Below, piece after piece: positions 33,081-62,895 of a stretch of DNA of 64,000 bases; positions within the stretch are counted from its first letter, which is position 1, and the number at the start of each line of letters is the position of its first letter. The notes below the pieces were generated by a model. That model searched no databases and was not told the origin of the DNA. It saw only the letters and a program-made list of their open reading frames with translations. This DNA comes from a phage. The translations under genes were made by a program, and so were the position numbers. The DNA lies in sequence record PZ534512.1; one strand, 5' to 3'.

Positions 33081-34779
33081 TTGTGTATTGACCAGATGAA
33101 ATAGAACTCATAGATGCCATTTTTTCTGTCCAATCACCACCAACGTCCCAATCAACTGTCCCAGCAACTTTCCAAGAAAGATTTCCATTTACTGTATTAG
33201 TTTGATTACCTTCAACTAAAGTGGTAGCATCTCCTTTAACTGTAATGTCAGCATTACCTTCAACTACAATAGTAACATTACCTTTAACTAGGATAGTTCC
33301 ATTACCTTCAACCGTCTTAGTTTCATCGCCACGTACAAATATTGTATTGCTTCCATCTATTTGGTGAAGACGATTATCCATGTTGTAATAAATTTCTGAA
33401 CCACCGACGTTAGTCTTTTTATCACCGGCTACCAAAAAATTACCATCAGCGTTGGTTATATCATACAAATTATCAACAGTTTTTCTTGTTCTTCTTCCTG
33501 ACGGTGATACTTCTTCATAAGTTCCAGTTGGATGAACTAATCTGTATCGTTCTTGCCCAGGGGTATCATCAAATTCCTGAATATGTCCACTTTCAGTTTC
33601 CATTGTATGCACATAAGGATATTCACCTTTATATGAAGAAACTGGTTCTTTGAATAAAATTCTCGAGTCATTTGGAATAGGAGGATCAGCAGGGTCAGAA
33701 GATTTAGCTACAGTAGCAGCCATTGCTGATAGAGACCTAGCTGGGGTTTTCACTTCAACACCATATGATTCCAAATTCCCTGTAAGAATAATCATGGTAA
33801 CACGGGATGCACGGCCTTTTGTTTGTTGATACCACAATGAATCACGACCAGCTTTATATGCCTTTTCCCAATCTCCGGCTAACATAGCAGTTAACATTGT
33901 GTTAAATTTAGCTACACCGCCAACGCCCATCTGAAATGCCATATTTTCTAATGCCATTTGACGAGAACGGTTTACAGCTTGCCAGACTGGTCCTACTTTA
34001 GAATGTGATTTAATGTCACGTTGCATATCAGCCAAATCACGCTCAAATAAAGTCGTCGCTTCTTCCATTGTAATAGAACCTGGGTTTCCAGTAATTTCAC
34101 GACCAACTTGTTTCGATAAAACTTTATTAATTTGAGCCATATCACGAACTGGCTGCTTCATGATAAGATGACCAATACCAATTGTCGGATATCCTTCGGT
34201 ATCCCAATAAACTTTTAGTCTTAATCCTTCATCGCGGCGAAGCATTTCAGCCATTGACATATTTGGATTATCATCAGTTGGAATCTCTGATAGTGGTCTA
34301 TCATCAGGATTTATCGCAGTGTCTAGATTGCTATCTTGGATAATATTAGAAGACGAATCATATCCTACTTCTCCGCCTTGGTTTAATACGTTAGTATCAT
34401 TTCCTAGACGTCTAGGATACTGTCCAGTCGGGTCAGAAAATCCTTCAAGTCTATTAGGCTTTTCGCGAACTATTCCACCATACGTGCCAAGGACAATTCC
34501 GTTAGTTTTCCATTTGTCTAAAAAATGACCATAAACTCTAGTTCCTTCTACCGGACCAGTAACGGAGCCTCCAATTCCAGACATTGCTGCAGAAGTTATA
34601 GGTTGAATAACTGACATCCATGGTAATTTATCAGTTGGAATACCCATTACATCGCCTTGCGCTCTTTGAGGTGGATGCAGACCAACCACACGAACACGAA
34701 CACGACCTAATTTTAATGGGTCCATTCTATCTTCAACAACACCAACAAACCAATTAAGGTTATTACTTATCATTTCCAT
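33052..34779 (-). CDS. 5: gp5 baseplate hub / cell-puncturing protein with lysozyme domain (575 aa)
   Basis: 575 aa as in T4 gp5; central lysozyme-like segment (DTEGYPTIGIGHLI) and C-terminal VxGxxxxxxxG beta-helix repeats. Confidence 0.95.
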   Translation of the reverse strand: MEMISNNLNWFVGVVEDRMDPLKLGRVRVRVVGLHPPQRAQGDVMGIPTDKLPWMSVIQPITSAAMSGIGGSVTGPVEGTRVYGHFLDKWKTNGIVLGTYGGIVREKPNRLEGFSDPTGQYPRRLGNDTNVLNQGGEVGYDSSSNIIQDSNLDTAINPDDRPLSEIPTDDNPNMSMAEMLRRDEGLRLKVYWDTEGYPTIGIGHLIMKQPVRDMAQINKVLSKQVGREITGNPGSITMEEATTLFERDLADMQRDIKSHSKVGPVWQAVNRSRQMALENMAFQMGVGGVAKFNTMLTAMLAGDWEKAYKAGRDSLWYQQTKGRASRVTMIILTGNLESYGVEVKTPARSLSAMAATVAKSSDPADPPIPNDSRILFKEPVSSYKGEYPYVHTMETESGHIQEFDDTPGQERYRLVHPTGTYEEVSPSGRRTRKTVDNLYDITNADGNFLVAGDKKTNVGGSEIYYNMDNRLHQIDGSNTIFVRGDETKTVEGNGTILVKGNVTIVVEGNADITVKGDATTLVEGNQTNTVNGNLSWKVAGTVDWDVGGDWTEKMASMSSISSGQYTIDGSRIDIG

Positions 34780-38077: not shown

Positions 38078-38774
<697 letters not shown>

Positions 38775-38786
38775 TTTCACAAAGTT

Positions 38787-38816
38787 GTTTACATACTGAT
38801 GAGGTAGTGATACTAT
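38787..38816 (+). promoter_or_regulatory. T4-type early promoter (copy 1 of 33-bp repeat)
   Basis: GTTTAC (38787-38792), TACTAT (38811-38816); immediately after the 57B stop. Confidence 0.7.
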
Positions 38817-38846
38817 TATCTCATCAAAATTAATTAGGAAAATAAA

Positions 38847-39104
38847 ATGAAAACTTTCAAAGAGTTTGCTACAAAAACTGCTATCACTGAATCTTCTCAC
38901 GGTATGGAAGTAAAGCTTGGAATGGCTTTAGCTGAAGCTGAGCGTCTTTTCTCTCGTATTAAAGAACTTGCTGCTGCGGTCGATCCTTCGTCTTTTAAAG
39001 GAGACCAAACTAAAGTTAAAGCACTTTTAGCGTTATGCTCCGATGCAGGAGAAATTGCTAAAAATGGTTCTAAGATGAAGAAACGATTAGAAGATTTAAA
39101 ATAA
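38847..39104 (+). CDS. internal-protein-like small protein with capsid targeting sequence (IPI locus)
   Basis: N-terminus MKTFKEFATKTAITE resembles the T4 CTS (MKTYQEFIAE); sits at the ipI position after 57B behind its own early promoter. Confidence 0.6.
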   Translation: MKTFKEFATKTAITESSHGMEVKLGMALAEAERLFSRIKELAAAVDPSSFKGDQTKVKALLALCSDAGEIAKNGSKMKKRLEDLK

Positions 39105-39114
39105 TTTCACAAAG

Positions 39115-39144
39115 TTGTTTACATAGGGTTTTAGTTGTGATACT
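39115..39144 (+). promoter_or_regulatory. T4-type early promoter (copy 2 of 33-bp repeat)
   Basis: GTTTAC (39115-39120), TACTAT (39139-39144); immediately after the IPI-like stop. Confidence 0.7.
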
Positions 39145-39174
39145 ATTACCCTATCTACTACTGAGGAGAATAAA

Positions 39175-41488: not shown

Positions 41489-41804
41489 GACAAGAAGCCG
41501 GGTCGCTACCGGTAAGTCGTCGGACTGATGTTCCCTGAGTAAGGAATTGCGTTAATAATCTTTGCGTTTATTGATGCCCTCTTATATCACAGCAGAAACG
41601 GCGCACCGAATTATCGATTCGAGGAAATATCTTTGCCGTAAGCCGAGTAGCGTTTTTGACGGAACGTTCGGATATGGTCGAGATATGGCCTTTTAAAAAT
41701 ATTGAGTAGCGTCAACTGCTTGATAACCGGGTTCAAATCCCGGCGTTTCGTACAAACACTTGCCTTAGCAGGTGGAACCCCGACAAGGTTGCCGCAAGGC
41801 TTAG
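41489..41804 (+). ncRNA. ORF-free region after tRNA-Arg, probable stable small RNAs (T4 species 1/2, rnaC/rnaD equivalent)
   Basis: No ORF; tRNA-like T-arm element (CCGGGTTCAAATCCCGG); ends at a strong terminator; T4 encodes two stable RNAs at this position. Confidence 0.5.
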
Positions 41805-41832
41805 CCCCGACCGAAAGGTTGGGGCTTTTTAG
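41805..41832 (+). terminator. intrinsic terminator (10-bp stem, GAAA tetraloop, T-run)
   Basis: AGCCCCGACC-GAAA-GGTTGGGGCT followed by TTTTT. Confidence 0.8.
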
Positions 41833-41880
41833 TATAAATATAGTAGTATATTAAATCCACGAATTAAAACAGGAAATAAG

Positions 41881-42354
41881 ATGAAATCATATACTCAATT
41901 TTTAAATGAAGCGGTGTTAAATGAAGCATCTAGCACCGAAATTCAAGCTGTCGCAAAAGCAGCCATTGCAGCGGGTAAATATTCTTATAAAGATGCTTCT
42001 GATGAATCGCGATTCCAGTTCGCACGCGACATGAAAGCGGAAGGATTTACGGGAAATGCAGTTAGTATGGCCTGGAAAAGTTTAGTTGCTACTGGCGCTG
42101 CTTTTGCAAAGGCTTCGGGTAAACCTGCTCCTAAAGCAGATCCTAAAGTCGCACAAGAGAAAAATATTGTTAAAGGAATTATCTCCAAATATGAAGCTAT
42201 CCTTAAAGAGCTTTTAGTAATCAAAACTGAAGGCCAAAAACTAGCTCGTGCTTATAGTTTCAAAGATAACCCACATGCTCACTCTCTTGAGTATGTTGAA
42301 GACATTCAAAAAATTATTAAAGACCGCATTTGGTCTGCTAAACAAATCAAATAA
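41881..42354 (+). CDS. internal-protein-like protein with capsid targeting sequence (157 aa)
   Basis: N-terminus MKSYTQFLNEA resembles the T4 CTS; bracketed by near-identical terminator hairpins. Confidence 0.6.
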   Translation: MKSYTQFLNEAVLNEASSTEIQAVAKAAIAAGKYSYKDASDESRFQFARDMKAEGFTGNAVSMAWKSLVATGAAFAKASGKPAPKADPKVAQEKNIVKGIISKYEAILKELLVIKTEGQKLARAYSFKDNPHAHSLEYVEDIQKIIKDRIWSAKQIK

Positions 42355-42361
42355 CATTCTT

Positions 42362-42389
42362 AGCCCTAGCCGAAAGGTTGGGGCTTTTT
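42362..42389 (+). terminator. intrinsic terminator (near-copy of the one at 41805)
   Basis: AGCCCTAGCC-GAAA-GGTTGGGGCT followed by TTTTT. Confidence 0.8.
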
Positions 42390-42522
42390 GGTATCTAGGC
42401 CTTTCCAGGCCTCTCTAGACATCATTTAGTTTCTACCCTTTATAATATATTATCCTATCCTTTGATTTCCCCTCCCTGCCCTAGAATTCCTCAAAACTTT
42501 TTAAAAATTTTTTCACAAAACG

Positions 42523-42552
42523 GTTTACATCCTTGTCCTTCCATGGTACTAT
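42523..42552 (+). promoter_or_regulatory. T4-type early promoter
   Basis: GTTTAC -35 (42523-42528), 18-nt spacer, TACTAT -10 (42547-42552); upstream A/T-rich TTTTTCACAAAACG. Confidence 0.7.
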
Positions 42553-42595
42553 ACAACTATCAACTACTGATACAGAAAACAACTTGGAGAATGAA

Positions 42596-42859
42596 ATGGA
42601 TAATTACGGCGAACTGTTCAACTTCTTTATGAAATGTGTTTCAGAAGATTTTGGTCGTACAGTGAATGATATTAAAGTTATCGGTCCTGATCATCCGATG
42701 TTTGAAACTTATGCAGTAATGGGTAATGAAGATGGTCAGTGGTATACTGTAAAGGTTGTAATTAATATGTTCACGGCAGAAGGTTATGTTAAACTGTCTT
42801 CTAAAGTTTACCATGATAACGACGAAATCGCAGAAGAATATTTCAATAATATGAAATAA
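42596..42859 (+). CDS. hypothetical protein (87 aa)
   Basis: ATG after GGAGAA downstream of the early promoter; the ORF-track 5' extension begins at a TTG inside the promoter. Confidence 0.55.
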   Translation: MDNYGELFNFFMKCVSEDFGRTVNDIKVIGPDHPMFETYAVMGNEDGQWYTVKVVINMFTAEGYVKLSSKVYHDNDEIAEEYFNNMK

Positions 42860-42861
42860 TT

Positions 42862-42891
42862 GTGTACAAACACCAAGGATGGTGTTATTAT
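42862..42891 (+). promoter_or_regulatory. putative early promoter
   Basis: GTGTAC -35-like and TATTAT -10; shares the downstream TATAGACTTATCA leader with the promoter at 43081. Confidence 0.5.
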
Positions 42892-42928
42892 AGACTTATC
42901 AAAACAAATACAGAAACGGAGAAATAAA

Positions 42929-43092
42929 TGACTACTTTAATTATTTGGTTCGACGAAAATGAAGAAACATACTGCGTGAACATTGGCGAAAGCCCAATGC
43001 CAGAATTTGAATCTTCAGATAAAAACTCGGTTGTATCTTGGGCTGAAGGTTATAAAGCAGCAAAAGGCGATGTTGAAATAGTTTACATCTAA
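42929..43092 (+). CDS. hypothetical small protein (54 aa)
   Basis: ATG-initiated ORF below the 60-aa track threshold, behind a promoter-like element. Confidence 0.35.
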
Positions 43093-43110
43093 GTATGAAG
43101 GCGTTACTAT
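43081..43110 (+). promoter_or_regulatory. T4-type early promoter
   Basis: GTTTAC (43081-43086), TACTAT (43105-43110). Confidence 0.6.
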
Positions 43111-43136
43111 AGACTTATCATCACAAGGAAAACATT

Positions 43137-43472
43137 ATGAAACGTAACTTTAGTAAAGCTTTTTGTAATAGAAATGATTATCCTGAAGAGCTTTTTGAAT
43201 CTAAGGAATTTAAAGAGTTTAACGAACGTTCTCAAAACATGCCTGTACAGTGGGTATTGGATTATGCTAACCGTATCTTTGAAGGCGTACGTTTCGTTGG
43301 CCCCGATGATGAAGCTCCTTATTTTAAAAAGGCTTGGGAACTCGCCAACCAAGCATATATCAATGCTTTAGAATCTTCTAAAGGTACTGACGATGATTTT
43401 ATTTTATTGGCTATCAATGATGCCGTTGTCGAGGCCATCGACGCCTTTATCGACGAGCTAGACGAAGAATAA
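43137..43472 (+). CDS. hypothetical acidic protein (111 aa)
   Basis: ORF downstream of early promoter. Confidence 0.5.
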   Translation: MKRNFSKAFCNRNDYPEELFESKEFKEFNERSQNMPVQWVLDYANRIFEGVRFVGPDDEAPYFKKAWELANQAYINALESSKGTDDDFILLAINDAVVEAIDAFIDELDEE

Positions 43473-43503
43473 GTTTACAATCTATTAGAAACGTGATATT
43501 ATC
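43473..43503 (+). promoter_or_regulatory. T4-type early promoter
   Basis: GTTTAC (43473-43478) and TATTAT-like -10 near 43498. Confidence 0.55.
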
Positions 43504-43529
43504 TAATTATACAAACCTAAGGAAATACT

Positions 43530-46412: not shown

Positions 46413-46943
<531 letters not shown>

Positions 46944-46947
46944 AGCT

Positions 46948-46977
46948 GTTTACTTTCTCTTGCAATTGTGATAGTAT
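46948..46977 (+). promoter_or_regulatory. T4-type early promoter
   Basis: GTTTAC (46948-46953), TAGTAT -10 (46972-46977), upstream of the IP-like gene at 47032. Confidence 0.6.
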
Positions 46978-47031
46978 ATTCACAGTTACTTGAATAGATA
47001 AATTACTAATTAAAATATTTAAAGGAAACGC

Positions 47032-47349
47032 ATGAAAACATATCAAGAATTTATTGCAGAATCTGCTGCAGGACAGCGTGTAGAAGGCGGTTATATCTGG
47101 ATTGAACAAGTTGAGCCGCCAAGTCGCACTTCTACAGGTAAATGGAAAATCACTGTTGATGGTCCTGGTGGTAAACGTAGGACTCTTAAAGAAATTAACG
47201 GGTACTATGAAGAAGCTCTTTCTGACGCGGGTACTTATATGATGCAAATCATGATTAAAAACCCAGAAAATCGTTTTGCGGCTAGAGTTTTCCGCCGTAT
47301 TGGAAATAAGCTTTATGATGCATATTCTAAAAACTTCCCTAAAGAATAA
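47032..47349 (+). CDS. internal protein with capsid targeting sequence (105 aa; ipIII/ipII locus)
   Basis: N-terminus MKTYQEFIAES equals the canonical T4 CTS; basic small protein downstream of e. Confidence 0.65.
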   Translation: MKTYQEFIAESAAGQRVEGGYIWIEQVEPPSRTSTGKWKITVDGPGGKRRTLKEINGYYEEALSDAGTYMMQIMIKNPENRFAARVFRRIGNKLYDAYSKNFPKE

Positions 47350-47365
47350 AAATTAAAGGATACAC

Positions 47366-47839
47366 ATGAAAACATATCAAGAATTTATTACTGAAGCAGC
47401 TATTAATTCTCAAATTATTGCTGAATCTTTTACTGATCTTTTGAAATTTAAAAAAGGTCAAAAAATCACTGCTGTATTGGATGATGGTACAGAAATTGAG
47501 ATGGATGTACAAGGATATAATTATGCAGTAGATGGAAAACTGTATAATAAATCTCATGCTAAATTTGATTCATTTGACGACTTTGTTAATACAGTTGAAG
47601 ATGAAAAAACTCGTCGATCCATTGCAACTGGTGATGCTAAGGTTCTTATGGCACATGGTCATGAACGCATTCGCGCTAAACAGAATAAAATGGGTGAAGA
47701 TAATTTTGCATTAGTTGGTTATCAATCTGGTAAACAAACTTATGGCTATCAACGTACTGCTACAATGTATAATAAAAATGGTAAAATTGCCTTTGTAAAT
47801 AGTAAAGGTTCTATTCAGTACGTTAAATCGTTCAAATAA
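47366..47839 (+). CDS. internal protein with capsid targeting sequence (157 aa; ipII/ipIII locus)
   Basis: N-terminus MKTYQEFITEA equals the canonical CTS. Confidence 0.65.
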   Translation: MKTYQEFITEAAINSQIIAESFTDLLKFKKGQKITAVLDDGTEIEMDVQGYNYAVDGKLYNKSHAKFDSFDDFVNTVEDEKTRRSIATGDAKVLMAHGHERIRAKQNKMGEDNFALVGYQSGKQTYGYQRTATMYNKNGKIAFVNSKGSIQYVKSFK

Positions 47840-49693: not shown

Positions 49694-49971
49694 TGGCTCA
49701 ATTAAGTGCAGGGTTTGGTTATGAGTATTATACTGCACCTCGTCGTGTATCTGCCGCTCCTAAGAAAATTCAAAGTCTTGATGACTTCCAGGAAGTAGTC
49801 CGTAAAGCTTTTCAGGACTATGCACGCTATCTTAAAGAAGATTCGCAGGACTGTCTCGAAGAAGATGAAATTGCTTACTATGAGCAGCGTCTTGAACAGC
49901 TTAAAAACTTACATGAGGTTCGTGCAGAAGTTTCAAAGTCTATGAATAAATTGATTAGATTTAAAGAATAA
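49693..49971 (+). CDS. hypothetical protein (92 aa; vs.3 position)
   Basis: ATG at 49693 overlapping the upstream stop (TAATG). Confidence 0.5.
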
Positions 49972-49974
49972 CTG

Positions 49975-50004
49975 TTTACTTTTCCTCTTGACTGTGGTAT
50001 AATT
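49975..50004 (+). promoter_or_regulatory. T4-type early promoter upstream of regB
   Basis: GTTTAC (49975-49980), 18-nt spacer, TATAAT (49999-50004). Confidence 0.75.
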
Positions 50005-50030
50005 TTTCTATCAGTTAAGAGGAGAATAAC

Positions 50031-50492
50031 ATGACTATCAACACTGAAGTTTTTATCCGTCGAAATAAGCTTCGTCGTCACTTTGAGTCGGAGTTTCGTC
50101 AAATTAACAATGAGATTCGTGAGGCATCAAAAGCAGCAGGGGTCTCATCGTTTCATCTAAAATATTCTCAGCATCTTCTTGATCGTGCAATTCAACGGGA
50201 GATTGATGAGACATATGTTTTTGAATTATTCCATAAAATAAAAGATCATGTTTTAGAAGTTAATGAATTCCTGAGTATGCCTCCGCGTCCTGACATTGAC
50301 GAGGATTTTATTGATGGGGTTGAATATCGTCCTGGACGTTTAGAAATCACAGATGGAAATCTTTGGCTTGGATTTACAGTTTGTAAGCCTAATGAGAAGT
50401 TCAAAAACCCGTCACTTCAATGCAGGATGGCAATTATCAACAGTCGTCGTTTACCAGGAAAGGCTTCTAAAGCAGTAATTAAAACTCAATGA
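50031..50492 (+). CDS. regB: RegB site-specific endoribonuclease (153 aa)
   Basis: Translation MTINTEVFIRRNKLRRHFESEFRQINNEIREASKAAGVSSFHLKYSQHLLDRAIQ... matches recalled T4 RegB. Confidence 0.93.
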   Translation: MTINTEVFIRRNKLRRHFESEFRQINNEIREASKAAGVSSFHLKYSQHLLDRAIQREIDETYVFELFHKIKDHVLEVNEFLSMPPRPDIDEDFIDGVEYRPGRLEITDGNLWLGFTVCKPNEKFKNPSLQCRMAIINSRRLPGKASKAVIKTQ

Positions 50493-54136: not shown

Positions 54137-54159
54137 AGTCTCCTTCGGGAGACTTTTTT
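54137..54159 (+). terminator. intrinsic terminator
   Basis: AGTCTCC-TTCG-GGAGACT followed by TTTTTT. Confidence 0.8.
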
Positions 54160-54169
54160 CATTTTACCG

Positions 54170-54199
54170 GTTTACTTTTCATTTGAGCTGTGATACTAT
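54170..54199 (+). promoter_or_regulatory. T4-type early promoter
   Basis: GTTTAC (54170-54175), TACTAT (54194-54199), followed by the shared ACAACTATC leader. Confidence 0.7.
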
Positions 54200-54227
54200 A
54201 CAACTATCGGATAAAGAGGAGAACATC

Positions 54228-54416
54228 ATGAAAATTGAAGCACTCAATCAAAAAGGAAATATCTACGTCATCATTAATGGTGATTTTTTCGTCGACATGG
54301 ATGAAGTTACTAGTGAAGAACTTGTAGAACTTCTTAAGAAACGTTATAATATGTGTGATGAAGTTGCAACTCACATGGCGTGTGCAATATTCTCTCTTTC
54401 ATATGTGGTGGAATAA
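54228..54416 (+). CDS. hypothetical small protein (62 aa)
   Basis: ATG after AAGAGGAGAA downstream of the early promoter. Confidence 0.5.
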
Positions 54417-54795: not shown

Positions 54796-54958
54796 AAAGC
54801 AGATGTTTTTAATGAAGCTAATTGAAGAATATGCTAATGCAGTTTCTGACTATGAGCATTCTGCTCGGGAAAGAGGTACAGCTTTCGCCAAAGAAGAAAT
54901 GAAAATCATGGTTGATGCTCACACAAAGCTTCAGAATTTTATTGAAAACGTCATTTAA
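54785..54958 (+). CDS. hypothetical small protein (57 aa)
   Basis: ATG-initiated ORF overlapping the upstream gene end; below the ORF-track threshold. Confidence 0.35.
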   Translation: MKTEKQMFLMKLIEEYANAVSDYEHSARERGTAFAKEEMKIMVDAHTKLQNFIENVI

Positions 54959-54960
54959 TG

Positions 54961-54990
54961 GTTTACAAGTTGGCAAGGTTATGGTATAGT
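54961..54990 (+). promoter_or_regulatory. T4-type early promoter
   Basis: GTTTAC (54961-54966), 18-nt spacer, TATAGT (54985-54990). Confidence 0.65.
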
Positions 54991-55122
54991 AATCTTGTCA
55001 ACTGCCAAGGAGAAGAGAATGAAAATTTTGTTTGTTGTGTATGTGGTGATTCAATATAATTACCCAATGTTTACCTATAATCTGGTGAACAATATTATTG
55101 ATATGATTCAAAGGAGTATGTA

Positions 55123-55674: not shown

Positions 55675-56196
55675 ATGTTTATTTCAAGTGAAAGTGGTTT
55701 AATTCGTGTTGAATTTAAAAATGACATCTTTCTTATTCAAGGAGATGATACTATTAAAATGAGTTATGACGAAATCAAGAAAATTTGTCACATTCTTGGA
55801 AGTCGTGGAAAAGTAAATGCTGTTATTGACATCGGTGATTTATGGGTAACTCTTTATGAAGTATCCGAAGGATTTAACATTGAAGATGAAAACAACATCT
55901 TAGCTATTGATAAAAGAAGCGATTTGTTTGATGTGTTAAAAGTTTATGAACAGTCAAACGGTGGAAGAAAAGCTGCATTGATTTATCAAAAACCACATTC
56001 ATGCGGAACTGCTTCAATTATTTCAGATATTGAAGATGAAACTGATACTTATATGTGTGTTTTAAAAGCTGGTGGTGACCGTCATCCGGATTTTATTTCT
56101 ATTCGTCAAAACAATGGAGAAATTTCATTATCAAAATCAGAAGCTGAAGCTATGATTAAGTATTTAACAACTGTTACACCTTCAATGAAAGGATAA
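55675..56196 (+). CDS. hypothetical protein, paralog B of tandem pair (173 aa)
   Basis: Paralogous to 55123-55668 (C-terminal ...AEAMIKYLTTVTPSM). Confidence 0.5.
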   Translation: MFISSESGLIRVEFKNDIFLIQGDDTIKMSYDEIKKICHILGSRGKVNAVIDIGDLWVTLYEVSEGFNIEDENNILAIDKRSDLFDVLKVYEQSNGGRKAALIYQKPHSCGTASIISDIEDETDTYMCVLKAGGDRHPDFISIRQNNGEISLSKSEAEAMIKYLTTVTPSMKG

Positions 56197-56198
56197 TT

Positions 56199-56660
56199 AT
56201 GATTATTAATGAAAACTCTTGGCACTATAAATTATTCAAACTGTTTAACGACGAATGGAAACGACCTAAGACACTGTGTGCATACTTTTGGTCTATTGTT
56301 ATCCCTACATTTTTCGTTTCTTTTTTCGGATGTACTATACTCGCAGGTCTAACTATTATCTGTGCAGAAATCATGCAGAAATGGCTTATTTTTGGTAGTT
56401 TATGGACTCTTATTCCATCAGCATTTATACTTGCCATTTTGCTTGTTTTACTTATTATTGGTTCATTTGTTATTCCTGCACAACTGCATGAAAAATATAA
56501 AGATTATAAATGGAAAAAGGATTATGCTTTACATGTAGAAAATATTGATAGGGCGTATAAAGGTTTACCTCCTATTCAACCCAAGAAATCTATTATCGTC
56601 GAATTTTTAAAAGCACGTAAAGCTAAAGTATGTCCTGTTATTGAATATAAGGCTGAATGA
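56199..56660 (+). CDS. predicted integral membrane protein (153 aa)
   Basis: Three or four hydrophobic helices; ATGA overlap with the downstream nucleotidyltransferase gene. Confidence 0.5.
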   Translation: MIINENSWHYKLFKLFNDEWKRPKTLCAYFWSIVIPTFFVSFFGCTILAGLTIICAEIMQKWLIFGSLWTLIPSAFILAILLVLLIIGSFVIPAQLHEKYKDYKWKKDYALHVENIDRAYKGLPPIQPKKSIIVEFLKARKAKVCPVIEYKAE

Positions 56661-57670: not shown

Positions 57671-57672
57671 TA

Positions 57673-57696
57673 GGGAGCCTTCGGGCTCCCTTTTTT
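57673..57696 (+). terminator. intrinsic terminator
   Basis: GGGAGCC-TTCG-GGCTCCC followed by TTTTTT. Confidence 0.8.
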
Positions 57697-57720
57697 ATTT
57701 CAAAAATTTTTCACAAAACG

Positions 57721-57750
57721 GTTTACAAGCATAAAGCTTTATGGTACTAT
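57721..57750 (+). promoter_or_regulatory. T4-type early promoter (same cassette as at 42523)
   Basis: GTTTAC (57721-57726), TACTAT (57745-57750); shares AAAATTTTTCACAAAACGGTTTACA and GGTACTATACAACTATCAACT with the 42.5-kb promoter. Confidence 0.7.
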
Positions 57751-57784
57751 ACAACTATCAACTGATACAGATTTGGAGAATAAA

Positions 57785-58753
57785 ATGAAAACTGTAACTA
57801 TCAATAAGGGTATCTACTTCGGTAAAGAAATCTCTGGAACTTTTGAGCTCTTAGGCGAATGGTTCCCAGATAATGCTCCGGTAGATGCACAAGGAGATGG
57901 TAAAGTTTTTGTTGAAATTGACGGTAAGCGTCGCGGTGTTTGGGTTTACAAATCAGACATTTCATATGATGGTGTAAAAGTTGAAGAAGTTAAAGAATCA
58001 TATGAAGATATGAAAACCCGCATTAATAAAAGATTTAATGTTATGGGAATGATGACGAATGGTATTATTAACGGAAACATTCGTTCATTAATTATCTCTG
58101 GTGCGGCGGGTATTGGTAAAACGTATTCTTTAGATAAAGCTTTAAATAAAGCAAATGATATTGGATACATTGAATATAAAAGCATTAATGGTAAAATCTC
58201 TGGTATTGGTCTTTATGAACAGCTTTGGAATAATCGTGAAGAGAATTCTGTCCTTTTGATTGATGATGTGGATGTTTTCTCTGATATGGACATTCTTAAT
58301 CTTCTGAAAGCTGCTCTGGACACTGGAGAGACCCGTAAAGTCTGCTGGAGCACTGCGTCTTCTTACTTAGAAGAAAAAGGCATTGAGCGTGAGTTTGAAT
58401 TTAAAGGAACGATTGTTTTTATCACAAACGTTGACATTGACCGCGAATTAGACCGTGGTACTAAACTTGCTCCACATTTACAAGCATTAGTGTCCCGCTC
58501 AGTTTATTTGGATTTGGGTGTTCACACTAATGAAGAAATTATGGTCAGGGTTGAAGATGTTATTCTTTCAACTGACATGATGCAAAAGCGCGGTCTTTCT
58601 GATGAAGAAACTTATAAAGCATTATCATGGATGAAAGTCAATGTTAATCGTTTACGCAATGTTTCACTGCGTACTGCTCTTTATCTTGCTGACTTTATTA
58701 TGACAGACAAAAACGGTTGGGAAGAAATTGCTGAAACGGTATTATTAAAATGA
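57785..58753 (+). CDS. predicted P-loop/AAA-like ATPase (322 aa from ATG at 57785)
   Basis: Walker A GAAGIGKT and Walker B VLLIDDVD; ORF-track start 57773 is a TTG. Confidence 0.6.
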   Translation: MKTVTINKGIYFGKEISGTFELLGEWFPDNAPVDAQGDGKVFVEIDGKRRGVWVYKSDISYDGVKVEEVKESYEDMKTRINKRFNVMGMMTNGIINGNIRSLIISGAAGIGKTYSLDKALNKANDIGYIEYKSINGKISGIGLYEQLWNNREENSVLLIDDVDVFSDMDILNLLKAALDTGETRKVCWSTASSYLEEKGIEREFEFKGTIVFITNVDIDRELDRGTKLAPHLQALVSRSVYLDLGVHTNEEIMVRVEDVILSTDMMQKRGLSDEETYKALSWMKVNVNRLRNVSLRTALYLADFIMTDKNGWEEIAETVLLK

Positions 58754-59469
58754 AAAAATATTTTACTATCTATAAAACTGAAATATTAAATTTAAAGACA
58801 GGTATTAAGAAATACTATTATGGTCGACATATAACTAATAACATCAATGATTCGTATGTTGGTAGTGGAAATTATATAGAACGTGTAAAAGTGTCAAATG
58901 ACCACATATTATCAAAAACGGTTTTAGAAGTTTTTGATAATTATGATAAAATGGTACAAGCTGAAATATTATATATCATGGCAGGTAAATTGAAATATGG
59001 AAAAAACTGTGTTAACCTGTCATACGGGGGTGAAGGAGGAAAGGTTGCAGATGAAACTAGGATAAAATGCAAAAAGCATTCTATAAATTTATGGAAAAAT
59101 CCTAATCATATACAGCATATGAAGAAAAAGATGAAAGAGGTCACATCCACGCCGGAAGCTAAATTAAACACTTCAATAAAAACTTCGCAACGATATAAGG
59201 ACCCAGTTTTTGTTAGAAAAGTTAGTAATATTATTAAAAAGAAACTAAGCAATCCTGTAGTAAAAGAAAAGCATATTAATGGAATTAAAGCTGCAAAGCG
59301 TTCTCATTTAACTATATGGCAATATGAAGATGAATTATTCGAGCTTTGGAAAGAAACTAAATATGGATGGAGAAAATTTACAAAGGAAGCTATAAAACAC
59401 GGGTATCCAAATGAACCGTATCGTAGTATGGTATCAACCTTTCAGAAAAGACATTTAGAAGAATCCTAA
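58750..59469 (+). CDS. GIY-YIG-like Seg-family homing endonuclease (239 aa)
   Basis: N-terminal YYYGRH...YVGSG and LSYGGEGG motifs, parallel to segB (IYIGAH...YMGSG, LKLGGEGG); basic C-terminal DNA-binding-like region. Confidence 0.65.
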   Translation: MKKYFTIYKTEILNLKTGIKKYYYGRHITNNINDSYVGSGNYIERVKVSNDHILSKTVLEVFDNYDKMVQAEILYIMAGKLKYGKNCVNLSYGGEGGKVADETRIKCKKHSINLWKNPNHIQHMKKKMKEVTSTPEAKLNTSIKTSQRYKDPVFVRKVSNIIKKKLSNPVVKEKHINGIKAAKRSHLTIWQYEDELFELWKETKYGWRKFTKEAIKHGYPNEPYRSMVSTFQKRHLEES

Positions 59470-59551: not shown

Positions 59552-59854
59552 ATGTTATACTCAAAGGCTCGTGAAATTTACGAAACTAAAATTAAAGAAG
59601 CAGTATTTCAGTTCGCAACAACGATGCGATGGACAAATGATTGGGAGTATTCAAAAAATCATAAGAAGCCCATGGTGACAAGAAAGGCTCATATGTTAGT
59701 GTTAATAGACCGTGAGCAGATTAAAGCCCGAGAAGCCCTCCAGAATCATAAAAAGGCTGCTTTTGAATGGTTTATGGATAACACTGCTCCTGAGACTAAG
59801 AAAGCGGTGAGCGCGTGGTTCAGTGGAAAAAATTGTGAAAGAAGTTTCTTTTAG
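59552..59854 (+). CDS. hypothetical protein (100 aa)
   Basis: ATG preceded by GGAGGTAG; ORF-track start 59540 also possible. Confidence 0.5.
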   Translation: MLYSKAREIYETKIKEAVFQFATTMRWTNDWEYSKNHKKPMVTRKAHMLVLIDREQIKAREALQNHKKAAFEWFMDNTAPETKKAVSAWFSGKNCERSFF

Positions 59855-59856
59855 TT

Positions 59857-59886
59857 GTTTACAAGACCGTTCCTCTGTGGTACTAT
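59857..59886 (+). promoter_or_regulatory. T4-type early promoter
   Basis: GTTTAC (59857-59862), TACTAT (59881-59886), then the ACAACTATCAACT leader. Confidence 0.7.
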
Positions 59887-59914
59887 ACAACTATCAACTA
59901 CGGAGGAACAGAAA

Positions 59915-60442
59915 ATGAATGCTAAAGATATTTTCAACTTGGTAAACTACAATGATGGTAAATTTAAATCTGAAGCACAAAGTAAGTTCTTTAATGACAT
60001 CTCAATCGGTGGTGAAATCACGGTTGATGGAGGACAAGTTTATAAATCTCGTTGGAATTGGATCGTTATTATCGATGAGATTGGTATTGTAGAAATTTAC
60101 AAAAATACGAATAAAAATCGTACATTACACTGGTCTCGTGATACTAACGAACAGTACAAAAAGGATAAAGCATCTAAATTATCTCGTGTAACTCAAGAAG
60201 ATATTGAGTTCATCAAGAAAGATATTTTGATGTATGATAACTTAATTGCTGAAGAGCAAGCTGTTATTGATAAATTTGACGAGATTAAAGCTTCTCGTGA
60301 AATTCCTGATTTTATGAAAGAATCAGTAAATGAACGATACACTCTCATTTCAGAGCGTATTGAAACTTACAAAAAGCAAAGAGCTGAACGCCAGAATACT
60401 CTTCAGAAGTTTGAAGAACGGTTAAAGACGGTACTCGCATAA
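59915..60442 (+). CDS. hypothetical protein (175 aa)
   Basis: ATG after GGAGGAACAG downstream of the early promoter; ORF-track 5' extension lies within the promoter. Confidence 0.55.
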   Translation: MNAKDIFNLVNYNDGKFKSEAQSKFFNDISIGGEITVDGGQVYKSRWNWIVIIDEIGIVEIYKNTNKNRTLHWSRDTNEQYKKDKASKLSRVTQEDIEFIKKDILMYDNLIAEEQAVIDKFDEIKASREIPDFMKESVNERYTLISERIETYKKQRAERQNTLQKFEERLKTVLA

Positions 60443-61809: not shown

Positions 61810-62838
61810 ATGAAAACTCGTTCTCAAATTGAAGATATGGTTCGTAATGCCAGCTATACTCGTGATGTTATGACATTTTTGTGTGAAAATAATTTAGACC
61901 CTGATAAAGTTAATCGTGTTATTCATCACTTTAAGTATACGAATAGCAGTGAATGGGTGCGTAATTTTAGTAAAGCGGGGTATATTACACAAATGACTGC
62001 TCGTGAGCAGCTCACCGATTTCTGTAAAACTATTGATTATAAAAATCCTCTATTTGTTCAAGGTGTTGGTCAGAGTAAGGTTGATTTATCATCTGGATTT
62101 TTTAATCCAAATCATTATCGTATTGAATGGAGATTTATTGCTCTATTCCGTAAGCAATTAAAGCAAATTTTGTCGACGGCTAGTCGATTAAAAGGTTCTG
62201 ACATTAACTTAAAGAACCTGAAATTTGATGGTTATACTCTTCAGATGGAAGTAAGACCATTAAAAGAAAATAACAGAACTGCACGAATTAGCTTTAAACC
62301 TAATACAAAAAATTCTCTTTCAATTTGCGAATGCCTTAAATCGCAGTTGACAGAAGCATTTAAGTATATGGATGTTGTTGCCGCTGTTCAGTCTAAGATT
62401 TTACCTCGTTTTGAGCGAAATTGGGAACATACAACAACATATGAACTTGATATGGTTGTTTCATTTAAATATGATTTTTTGAGAAAGGACGAAGTCCCGC
62501 AAGAGAAAAAGCAGGAAGTACAAGATAACTTAAATTTAAATTTATCCAATTACTTATCAAACGATCCTAAATTTTGGATGTATAGTTCAGGTAATAAAGA
62601 TGCATGGAAATTTAATAAAGTGAATTTTCTTCCTATTGAAAATCCGAGTCTTAAACCTGTTGAAAAATGGCATGCAGATGCGATTGAGAAGTCTATCAAG
62701 GCAGTAGATGATGAACTCGTTAAAGCAACTAATGAAGTGCTAGAAGCTGAAAAGATGTTGGAAAAAGCTCAAGAAAAAGTCAAAAATCTTACGAAGCAAC
62801 GTTCTAAACTGAACAATGCACTAAATGCACTGAACTAG
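61810..62838 (+). CDS. hypothetical protein with C-terminal coiled coil (342 aa)
   Basis: Starts MKTRSQIEDM; ends in about 50-aa heptad-rich helix. Confidence 0.5.
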   Translation: MKTRSQIEDMVRNASYTRDVMTFLCENNLDPDKVNRVIHHFKYTNSSEWVRNFSKAGYITQMTAREQLTDFCKTIDYKNPLFVQGVGQSKVDLSSGFFNPNHYRIEWRFIALFRKQLKQILSTASRLKGSDINLKNLKFDGYTLQMEVRPLKENNRTARISFKPNTKNSLSICECLKSQLTEAFKYMDVVAAVQSKILPRFERNWEHTTTYELDMVVSFKYDFLRKDEVPQEKKQEVQDNLNLNLSNYLSNDPKFWMYSSGNKDAWKFNKVNFLPIENPSLKPVEKWHADAIEKSIKAVDDELVKATNEVLEAEKMLEKAQEKVKNLTKQRSKLNNALNALN

Positions 62839-62867
62839 TTTACATTGCCACAAGGATGTGGTATAAT
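62838..62867 (+). promoter_or_regulatory. T4-type early promoter
   Basis: GTTTAC (62838-62843), 18-nt spacer, TATAAT (62862-62867). Confidence 0.7.
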
Positions 62868-62895
62868 GTTCTTACTTTCTACTGAGGAGATTATT

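Follow-up and report, generated by a model that had tools for sequence, protein, structure and literature searches.

Repeated T4-type early promoters in a Tequatrovirus genome and their probable use in the exchange of small gene cassettes

Upstream of the open reading frame (ORF) that starts at position 42596 of phage sequence PZ534512.1 lies an element of about 50 bp (42501-42580, TTAAAAATTTTTTCACAAAACGGTTTACATCCTTGTCCTTCCATGGTACTATACAACTATCAACT...) that had been noticed to recur at three distant loci. This raises two questions: what the element is, and whether its copies mark the boundaries of independently exchangeable early-gene modules and act as recombination substrates, as an earlier note on this DNA proposed. 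The window, meaning the whole stretch of 64,000 nucleotides that was analyzed, belongs to a Tequatrovirus (T4-like coliphage), and the region is 94-96% identical to many Tequatroviruses. Alignment to T4 identified the + strand of the window as the T4 early (counter-clockwise) strand, with the gene order 57B, ipI, trna.4-.2, tRNAs/segB, e.8...e, IPs, vs/regB, tk, rI, mobD.x, and nrdC.11...nrdC.4. Separately, the late-gene part of the window contains a tandem 288-nt direct repeat (75% identity) and a 24-nt-period array (1995-2570 and 33181-33324), probably within structural genes.

The element does recur at all the loci where it had been noticed, always on the + strand. The pattern GTTTAC-N14-(a/g)TG(G/A)TACTATACAACTATC has four copies in the window, at 42523, 54170, 57721, and 59857, with approximately 0 expected. 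Searching for GGTACTATACAACTATC with up to three mismatches gave four matches against 0.10 expected, again all on the + strand, and GTTTAC-N16-19-TANTATACAAC gave four against 0.00; a chance origin of the repeats was rejected on these last two comparisons. The genes behind the copies are orthologs of T4 e.8 (ATG at 42596), mobD.5 (54228), nrdC.10 (57785), and nrdC.8 (59915). Since near-identical promoters, even in their spacers, stand at all four orthologous sites in T4, the repeats are long established and fixed in the T4 lineage, not peculiar to this genome.

These four copies are part of a larger family. The consensus TTTACW-N17-TAYWAT, published for the PeSL promoters of the T4/PST pair (Comeau 2014, PMC4122927), matched the window 10 times on the + strand and 0 times on the - strand, against 0.29 expected. 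A PWM built from the ten matches over the span -60..+10 added three + strand sites (42863, 46949, and 54962), bringing the total to 13; its best - strand score was -5, and neither scan found a comparable family member on that strand of the window. All 13 T4-type early promoters fall within the 38.7-62.9 kb region, each followed after 20-80 nt by an ATG that has a Shine-Dalgarno (SD) sequence. The four copies rank among the five best PWM scores (53.6-65.2), and the trna.4 ortholog promoter at 39118 (39093-39174, + strand) reaches 61.3. Other members precede the regB ortholog (49950-50030, + strand, PWM 42.6) and an nrdC.4-region gene (62814-62895, + strand, 43.3), and one in the mobD.2 region reads TTTACA-N17-TATAGT with TGn (54937-55010, + strand, 23.1). 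Because a generic sigma-70 consensus scan of the window returned 82 sites against 79 expected, and so did not discriminate, only the T4-specific consensus is informative here. The T4 RefSeq record and AF158101 list no promoter features, and a literature search returned no transcript-start data for the four T4 sites; in the record of one relative, the orthologous element carries the annotation 'similar to phage T4 early promoter GTTTAC(N14)gtggTAttaT (Miller 2003)'.

With GTTTAC placed at -36..-31, as in the published numbering of T4 early promoters (PMC1524935), the anatomy of each copy can be laid out around a predicted +1 A. In the e.8 cassette (42499-42595, + strand), the UP region at 42499-42522 is followed by the -35 element GTTTACA at 42523-42529, TGG plus TACTAT at 42544-42552, a predicted +1 at 42559, and the SD sequence GGAG at 42586-42589; its PWM score of 65.2 is the maximum in the window, and the T4 ortholog at 70624-70720 is nearly identical. 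The mobD.5 cassette (54137-54227, + strand) begins with a hairpin at 54137-54154 and its U-tract, and continues with GTTTACT at 54170-54176, TGA plus TACTAT at 54191-54199, a predicted +1 at 54206, and GAGGAG at 54216-54221. The nrdC.10 copy, a full PeSL-type cassette (57672-57784, + strand), comprises a hairpin at 57672-57691 with U-tract, the UP region at 57697-57720, the -35 element at 57721-57727, TGG plus TACTAT at 57742-57750, a predicted +1 at 57757, and GGAG at 57775-57778. Finally, the nrdC.8 promoter (59833-59914, + strand) has its -35 element at 59857-59863, abutting the nrdC.9 stop, with TGG plus TACTAT at 59878-59886, a predicted +1 at 59893, and GGAGG at 59902-59906. In every case, a leader of 22-37 nt with a GGAG-type SD sequence leads to the ATG. 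This GGAG is also the cleavage motif of the T4 RegB endoribonuclease in early mRNAs, and regB itself lies within the window (50031-50492).

When the copies were anchored on GTTTAC and compared block by block, those at 42.5 and 57.7 kb agreed at 21/24 positions of the UP region (-60..-37), 7/7 of the -35 element, 9/9 of TGn/-10, and 13/13 from -6 to +7, and their 5'UTRs are homologous except for indels of 3 and 6 nt. Their spacers (-29..-16) are identical at 4/14 positions, which is chance level, as are all pairwise spacer identities among the four copies (2-6/14). The description of these two copies as almost verbatim repeats is therefore accurate for the blocks and not for the spacer. The 54.17 and 59.86 kb copies, which had been noted as shortened forms, indeed have only the -35, TGn/-10, and -6..+3/+7 blocks in common with the others. 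All four carry the -35 element GTTTAC(A/T), TGG or TGA plus TACTAT at the required 17-bp spacing, T-12/A-11/T-7, a conserved -6..+7 block, ACAACTATC(AACT), and an A/T-rich upstream region, which is a strong UP region (AAAAATTTTTTCACAAAA) in the e.8 and nrdC.10 copies. Two copies resemble a full UP element by the Estrem/Gourse consensus. The weaker UP regions are those of mobD.5, which overlaps the terminator U-tract, and nrdC.8, which falls in the nrdC.9 coding sequence. Such features define the 'UP/-35/TGn/-10' class to which T4 early promoters belong (Hinton 2010, PMC2988021). As a separate observation, the spacer of the nrdC.10 promoter contains a perfect 12-nt palindrome, ATAAAGCTTTAT (57731-57742), which is kept in T4 and relatives even where the promoter precedes a different gene.

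This anatomy, together with T4 orthology, supports the earlier view of the elements as early promoters, and we have high confidence that their primary function would be that of strong early promoters read by the host sigma-70 polymerase. Transcription would then be expected to start at the predicted +1, with possible effects of Alt and of the UP elements. The label 'PeSL-like' is a reasonable one. All four copies match the PeSL promoter consensus and are followed by an SD sequence and start codon. Stable tetraloop hairpins with U-tracts stand directly upstream of the mobD.5 (-10.8 kcal/mol, z -4.6) and nrdC.10 (-16.4 kcal/mol, z -3.9) promoters. The hairpin nearest to the e.8 promoter (42362-42385) lies 138 nt upstream, and no terminator hairpin was found before the nrdC.8 promoter, where the upstream sequence is the end of nrdC.9 (fold z -0.24). 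Hence, two of the four, at 54.1 and 57.7 kb, are complete promoter-plus-stem-loop cassettes.

Taken as a whole, the four elements are very probably sigma-70-dependent early promoters of the T4 type, whose repeats are also used by recombination for the exchange of cassettes. Host RNA polymerase would be expected to transcribe the e.8, mobD.5, nrdC.10, and nrdC.8 orthologs immediately after infection. The copies would have stayed alike because selection holds each polymerase-contact block near its optimum, and the spacer between the contacts would have drifted to chance-level identity, so that selection on the contact blocks would leave conserved blocks around an unconstrained spacer. As a by-product, near-identical patches of 25-60 bp, together with similar terminator hairpins, would come to stand at many same-strand gene boundaries, where the very active homologous recombination of the phage could use them to insert, delete, and swap small promoter-ORF-terminator cassettes, as in the published PeSL model. 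We hold with moderate confidence that the shared blocks and similar terminators serve as homologous recombination substrates.

The clearest record of exchange comes from the nrdC.11|nrdC.10 junction, where the 57.7 kb copy stands. Breakpoints were located by aligning the window to T4 and five other Tequatroviruses (KMB22, CrRp10, HY01, ECp13, and 215Ecol030PP) and chaining the matches. At this junction, KMB22 has 275 additional nt after 57761; HY01 has 581, flanked on either side by the same 39 nt of UP/-35 sequence (57688-57726); and 215Ecol030PP has 1168, between 57704 and 57773. Each inserted ORF has its own promoter upstream, and most also have a terminator. Reading along 215Ecol030PP, one meets a terminator, promoter P', a 161-aa ORF, another terminator, an nrdC.10-type promoter, a 49-aa and a DUF4031 ORF, a third promoter, and nrdC.10, so that the nrdC.10-type promoter with the same unique spacer now precedes the 49-aa and DUF4031 ORFs. 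Of 40 relatives drawn at even steps from the ranked list of 526 matching genomes, 16 (about 40%) have an indel here, in at least four size classes, and relatives carry 0, 1, or 3 extra ORFs. The junction is an insertion hot spot.

Most of the cargo ORFs had no match in Pfam, and the PHROGs matches, apart from bare family numbers, were limited to a homing endonuclease and an 'RNA polymerase ADP-ribosylase'. The last concerns the 161-aa ORF inserted upstream of nrdC.10 in HY01 and 215Ecol030PP (L004, 20623-21108; L006, 19964-20449), which matches the C-terminal part only of the phrog_832 profile (E = 2e-23) and is annotated modA_1 in the record of one relative. In the same neighborhood, a 239-aa homing-endonuclease-like ORF (phrog_314, 58750-59469) separates nrdC.10 from nrdC.9, its sequence overlapping the stop codon of nrdC.10; KMB22 has it, and it is absent from T4, CrRp10, HY01, ECp13, and 215Ecol030PP, with no promoter repeat at the indel.

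Insertion, deletion, or replacement of ORFs is likewise associated with the family members at 39.1, 42.9, 43.1, 43.5, and 47.0 kb. The 39118 promoter of 215Ecol030PP has received 276 nt, with 22 nt (39134-39155) duplicated around the insert. Promoter-like repeats at 42858 and 43077 flank a 54-aa ORF absent from T4; the first belongs to a degenerate member with TGTACA as its -35 element (42838-42927, + strand, PWM 29.4), in which a breakpoint at 42891 is found relative to T4, CrRp10, HY01, and ECp13. The ORF itself (42928-43092, phrog_5461), which CrRp10 also lacks, sits between repeats 72% identical to each other (42858-42907 and 43077-43126), much like a textbook promoter-flanked cassette. 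Between sites 43082 and 43474 lies e.7, for which three relatives carry a replacement; the e.7 ortholog promoter (43057-43136, + strand, PWM 44.5) contains breakpoints at 43087 and 43126, and that of the e.6 ortholog (43449-43529, + strand, 38.8) contains breakpoints at 43514/43525 in four relatives. Site 46949, a weaker member before an internal-protein gene (46924-47031, + strand, 11.4), borders variable IP genes and has a breakpoint at 47002 in four relatives. The promoter before the internal-protein gene at the ipI position (38763-38846, + strand, 49.9) precedes an ORF replaced relative to T4 and HY01 (38879|39099). Three internal-protein-type genes also have a common SD and N-terminal coding repeat (MKTYQEFI...; 38829-38882, 47014-47067, and 47348-47401). 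Because the KMB22 junction 47067|47353 (overlap -49) falls in this repeat, coding repeats are exchange points as well.

The remaining three of the four copies behave differently from the one at 57.7 kb. Near e.8, the variable point is a 36-nt terminator repeat and not the promoter. Its two copies (41800-41835, -20.3 kcal/mol, and 42359-42394, -18.3 kcal/mol; both + strand, 89% identical) flank the ORF 41881-42354, and the right copy lies about 130 nt upstream of the e.8 -35 element. The repeat is single in T4 (overlap -35); in CrRp10, a second paralog of the enclosed ORF, 187 aa long, has been inserted at the same hairpin (overlap -20). Judging from these junctions, exchange near the e.8 promoter actually takes place at the 42359-42394 terminator. 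The enclosed ORF, of 157 aa (phrog_2280), is absent from T4. The mobD.5 junction is intact in 500 of 502 records; in one of the two exceptions, Shinka, homology is lost at 54201, inside the promoter. The nrdC.8 junction is intact in 499 of 529 records at coverage of at least 80%, and all high-identity sampled rows were in one piece. The proposal that the repeats mark module boundaries and are recombination substrates, which was to be judged by whether they lie at synteny breakpoints between related phages, is thus sustained for the copy at 57.7 kb and for the class in general. It finds no support in the mobD.5 and nrdC.8 copies, invariant across about 500 genomes and, unlike the others, away from such breakpoints; at e.8, it shifts from promoter to terminator. 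Elsewhere in the mobD region, the T4 mobD homing-endonuclease gene is replaced by two ORFs of 173 and 153 aa (55675-56660), both also present in KMB22, CrRp10, and HY01.

How far breakpoints favor promoters depends on the null chosen. Across six relatives, promoter cassettes hold 9 of 39 unique breakpoints while covering 5.1% of the region (binomial p = 1e-4, although breakpoints shared by descent are non-independent), and a promoter cassette or terminator accounts for 12 of the 39. Against an intergenic-only null, no breakpoint enrichment in promoter cassettes was found (7/22, compared with 35% of intergenic bases), and therefore no statistical preference beyond 'intergenic' is claimed. Part of the association between promoters and breakpoints may only reflect that viable indels have to be intergenic.

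The intergenic null, the invariance of two of the four junctions, and the contrast between conserved polymerase-contact blocks and paralog spacers at chance identity are what would be seen if the repeats were promoters only, alike through functional constraint, and indels near them were merely intergenic, with no special role in exchange. We consider this unlikely. Duplicated promoter or terminator sequence borders the inserts (overlaps of -39, -22, -35, and -20 nt), the same promoter with its unique spacer stands before different genes in different genomes, some spacers look chimeric, and circles between such elements have been detected in RB49/phi1 (Arbiol 2010, PMC2839356).

Independent evidence of exchange came from scanning IMG/VR for the exact 19-mer GGTACTATACAACTATCAA, which has 26 copies in T4-like contigs, before at least 10 different start peptides. 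The spacer AACCAAAGCATACTGT occurs before both MKFKIENEIV and MSKVTYIIKA, and AAGCATAAAGCTTTAT before both nrdC.10 and the 49-aa ORF; some other spacers look chimeric. Leaders are 16-38 nt long, and block-to-ATG distances vary, partly by non-multiples of three. Additionally, in two contigs (L030, ~9037, and L018, ~2125; both minus strand), a terminator stem is fused to a promoter spacer, with the UP region and -35 element lost and the -10 element kept; these fusions are apparent recombination or deletion scars. Reuse of a spacer before different genes, chimeric spacers, and such scars are as predicted by recombination within shared blocks.

Serial build-up of cassettes at nrdC.11|nrdC.10, in the manner of an integron array, and the fact that several independent cargo junctions start right after ...ACTATCAA at +5/+6, bring to mind more specialized modes of exchange. 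One version, which we regard as improbable, sees the junction as an integron-like Tequatrovirus collecting site for serial promoter/terminator cassettes, with crossovers favoring the conserved +1..+6 'ATCAA' leader over an even spread; in this version, the cargo includes several ORFans, a DUF4031 pair, and a family of Alt/Mod-like ADP-ribosyltransferase fragments. If true, the collecting site would hint at targeted and not purely general recombination, and at a reservoir of genes for interaction with the host. Very improbable, too, is a dedicated site-specific system of the integron attC or MITE kind, served by a phage recombinase. The elements lack terminal inverted repeats and target-site duplications, crossovers occur in the UP/-35 block, spacer, and -10/+6 block as well as in terminator loops, the copies are fixed at orthologous T4 sites, and the +6 boundary is merely where the shared promoter consensus ends.

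It is extremely improbable that the conserved block is coding, that is, that upstream TTG codons start the translation of a common N-terminal peptide (..GTIQLSTTD..). None of the four copies has an in-frame stop codon between the -10 box and the ATG, three have an in-frame TTG, and mechanical ORF calling does place starts inside the promoter at 42533-42859 (108 aa, 'MSFHGTIQLSTTD...'), 59855-60442, and 54183-54416, with extensions reading '...GTIQLSTTD...' (42533), '...DTIQLSD...' (54183), and '...GTIQLSTTE...' (59855). No SD sequence precedes these TTGs, whereas each ATG is preceded at 6-8 nt by a GGAG-type one; upstream of its SD, nrdC.10 lacks any start codon, and block-to-ATG distances before other genes vary, partly by non-triplet amounts. 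Because the curated T4 annotation starts e.8, mobD.5, nrdC.10, and nrdC.8 at an ATG after a GGAG SD, the TTG extensions are artifacts of the ORF caller. The earlier suspicion of false N-termini arising inside promoters is accordingly borne out for e.8, mobD.5, and nrdC.8; the nrdC.10 TTG (57773) sits instead in the SD region and adds four codons only. Each of the four -10 boxes shares its frame with the ATG that follows, which we treat as shared leader ancestry or chance, leader lengths in other family members and the IMG/VR copies covering all residues mod 3. In practical terms, gene callers that permit TTG add false N-termini to T4-like early genes wherever the frame runs through the promoter, and recognizing the promoter fixes the start codon, corrected starts being a useful by-product.

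That the elements are T4 middle (MotA-dependent) or late (gp55) promoters is hardly conceivable, for although the -10 element is also found in middle promoters, all four copies have GTTTAC at -36 in place of a MotA box (TGCTT near -30), which is absent from their spacers, and lack the late motif TATAAATA (definitions in PMC2988021 and PMC1524935).

The reading of the elements as T4 early promoters whose repeats also serve recombination can finally be set against known systems. T4 early promoters share with them GTTTAC, the 17-bp spacing, TGn, T-12/A-11/T-7, the A/T-rich UP region, orientation, and position before early genes, and nothing substantive differs in sequence; the -10 element, TACTAT and not TATAAT, is within the published TAYWAT. 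As far as sequence features go, the four copies pass every test for a T4 early promoter, and the nrdC.10 copy is the only one placed right at a hot spot.

The PeSL model, originally demonstrated in RB49/phi1 together with the detection of mini-circles (Arbiol 2010, PMC2839356) and extended to T4/PST (PMC4122927), shares with this genome the succession of terminator hairpin, AT-rich region, early promoter, and SD/ATG at the borders of small variable ORFs, as well as insertion, deletion, and replacement junctions of relatives that fall in the repeats. It differs in that the hairpin lies directly upstream only in the 54.1 and 57.7 kb copies, being 138 nt off at e.8 and absent at nrdC.8, and in that two copies stand at non-varying junctions. 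Whereas mini-circles were detected in RB49/phi1, exchange here is read from sequence junctions only. The IP-locus polymorphism of T-even phages (Repoila et al. 1994, as cited in PMC4122927 and PMC2839356) has its counterpart in the genes at the ipI and ipII/ipIII positions of the window, which are replaced relative to T4, with junctions in flanking promoters and in the shared N-terminal repeat; that work, as far as these citations present it, concerned IP genes only, and the four copies here lie outside the IP loci.

All these findings match published knowledge of early promoters and PeSLs and involve no new biology. The element is nonetheless a practical landmark for variable accessory cassettes in Tequatrovirus genomes, of which nrdC.11|nrdC.10 is a clear example. 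As in integron arrays and lambdoid 'morons', small promoter-bearing or terminator-bounded ORFs stack serially at one site. Unlike an integron, with its integrase and attC, exchange here seems to proceed by general homologous recombination between repeats of regulatory sequence.
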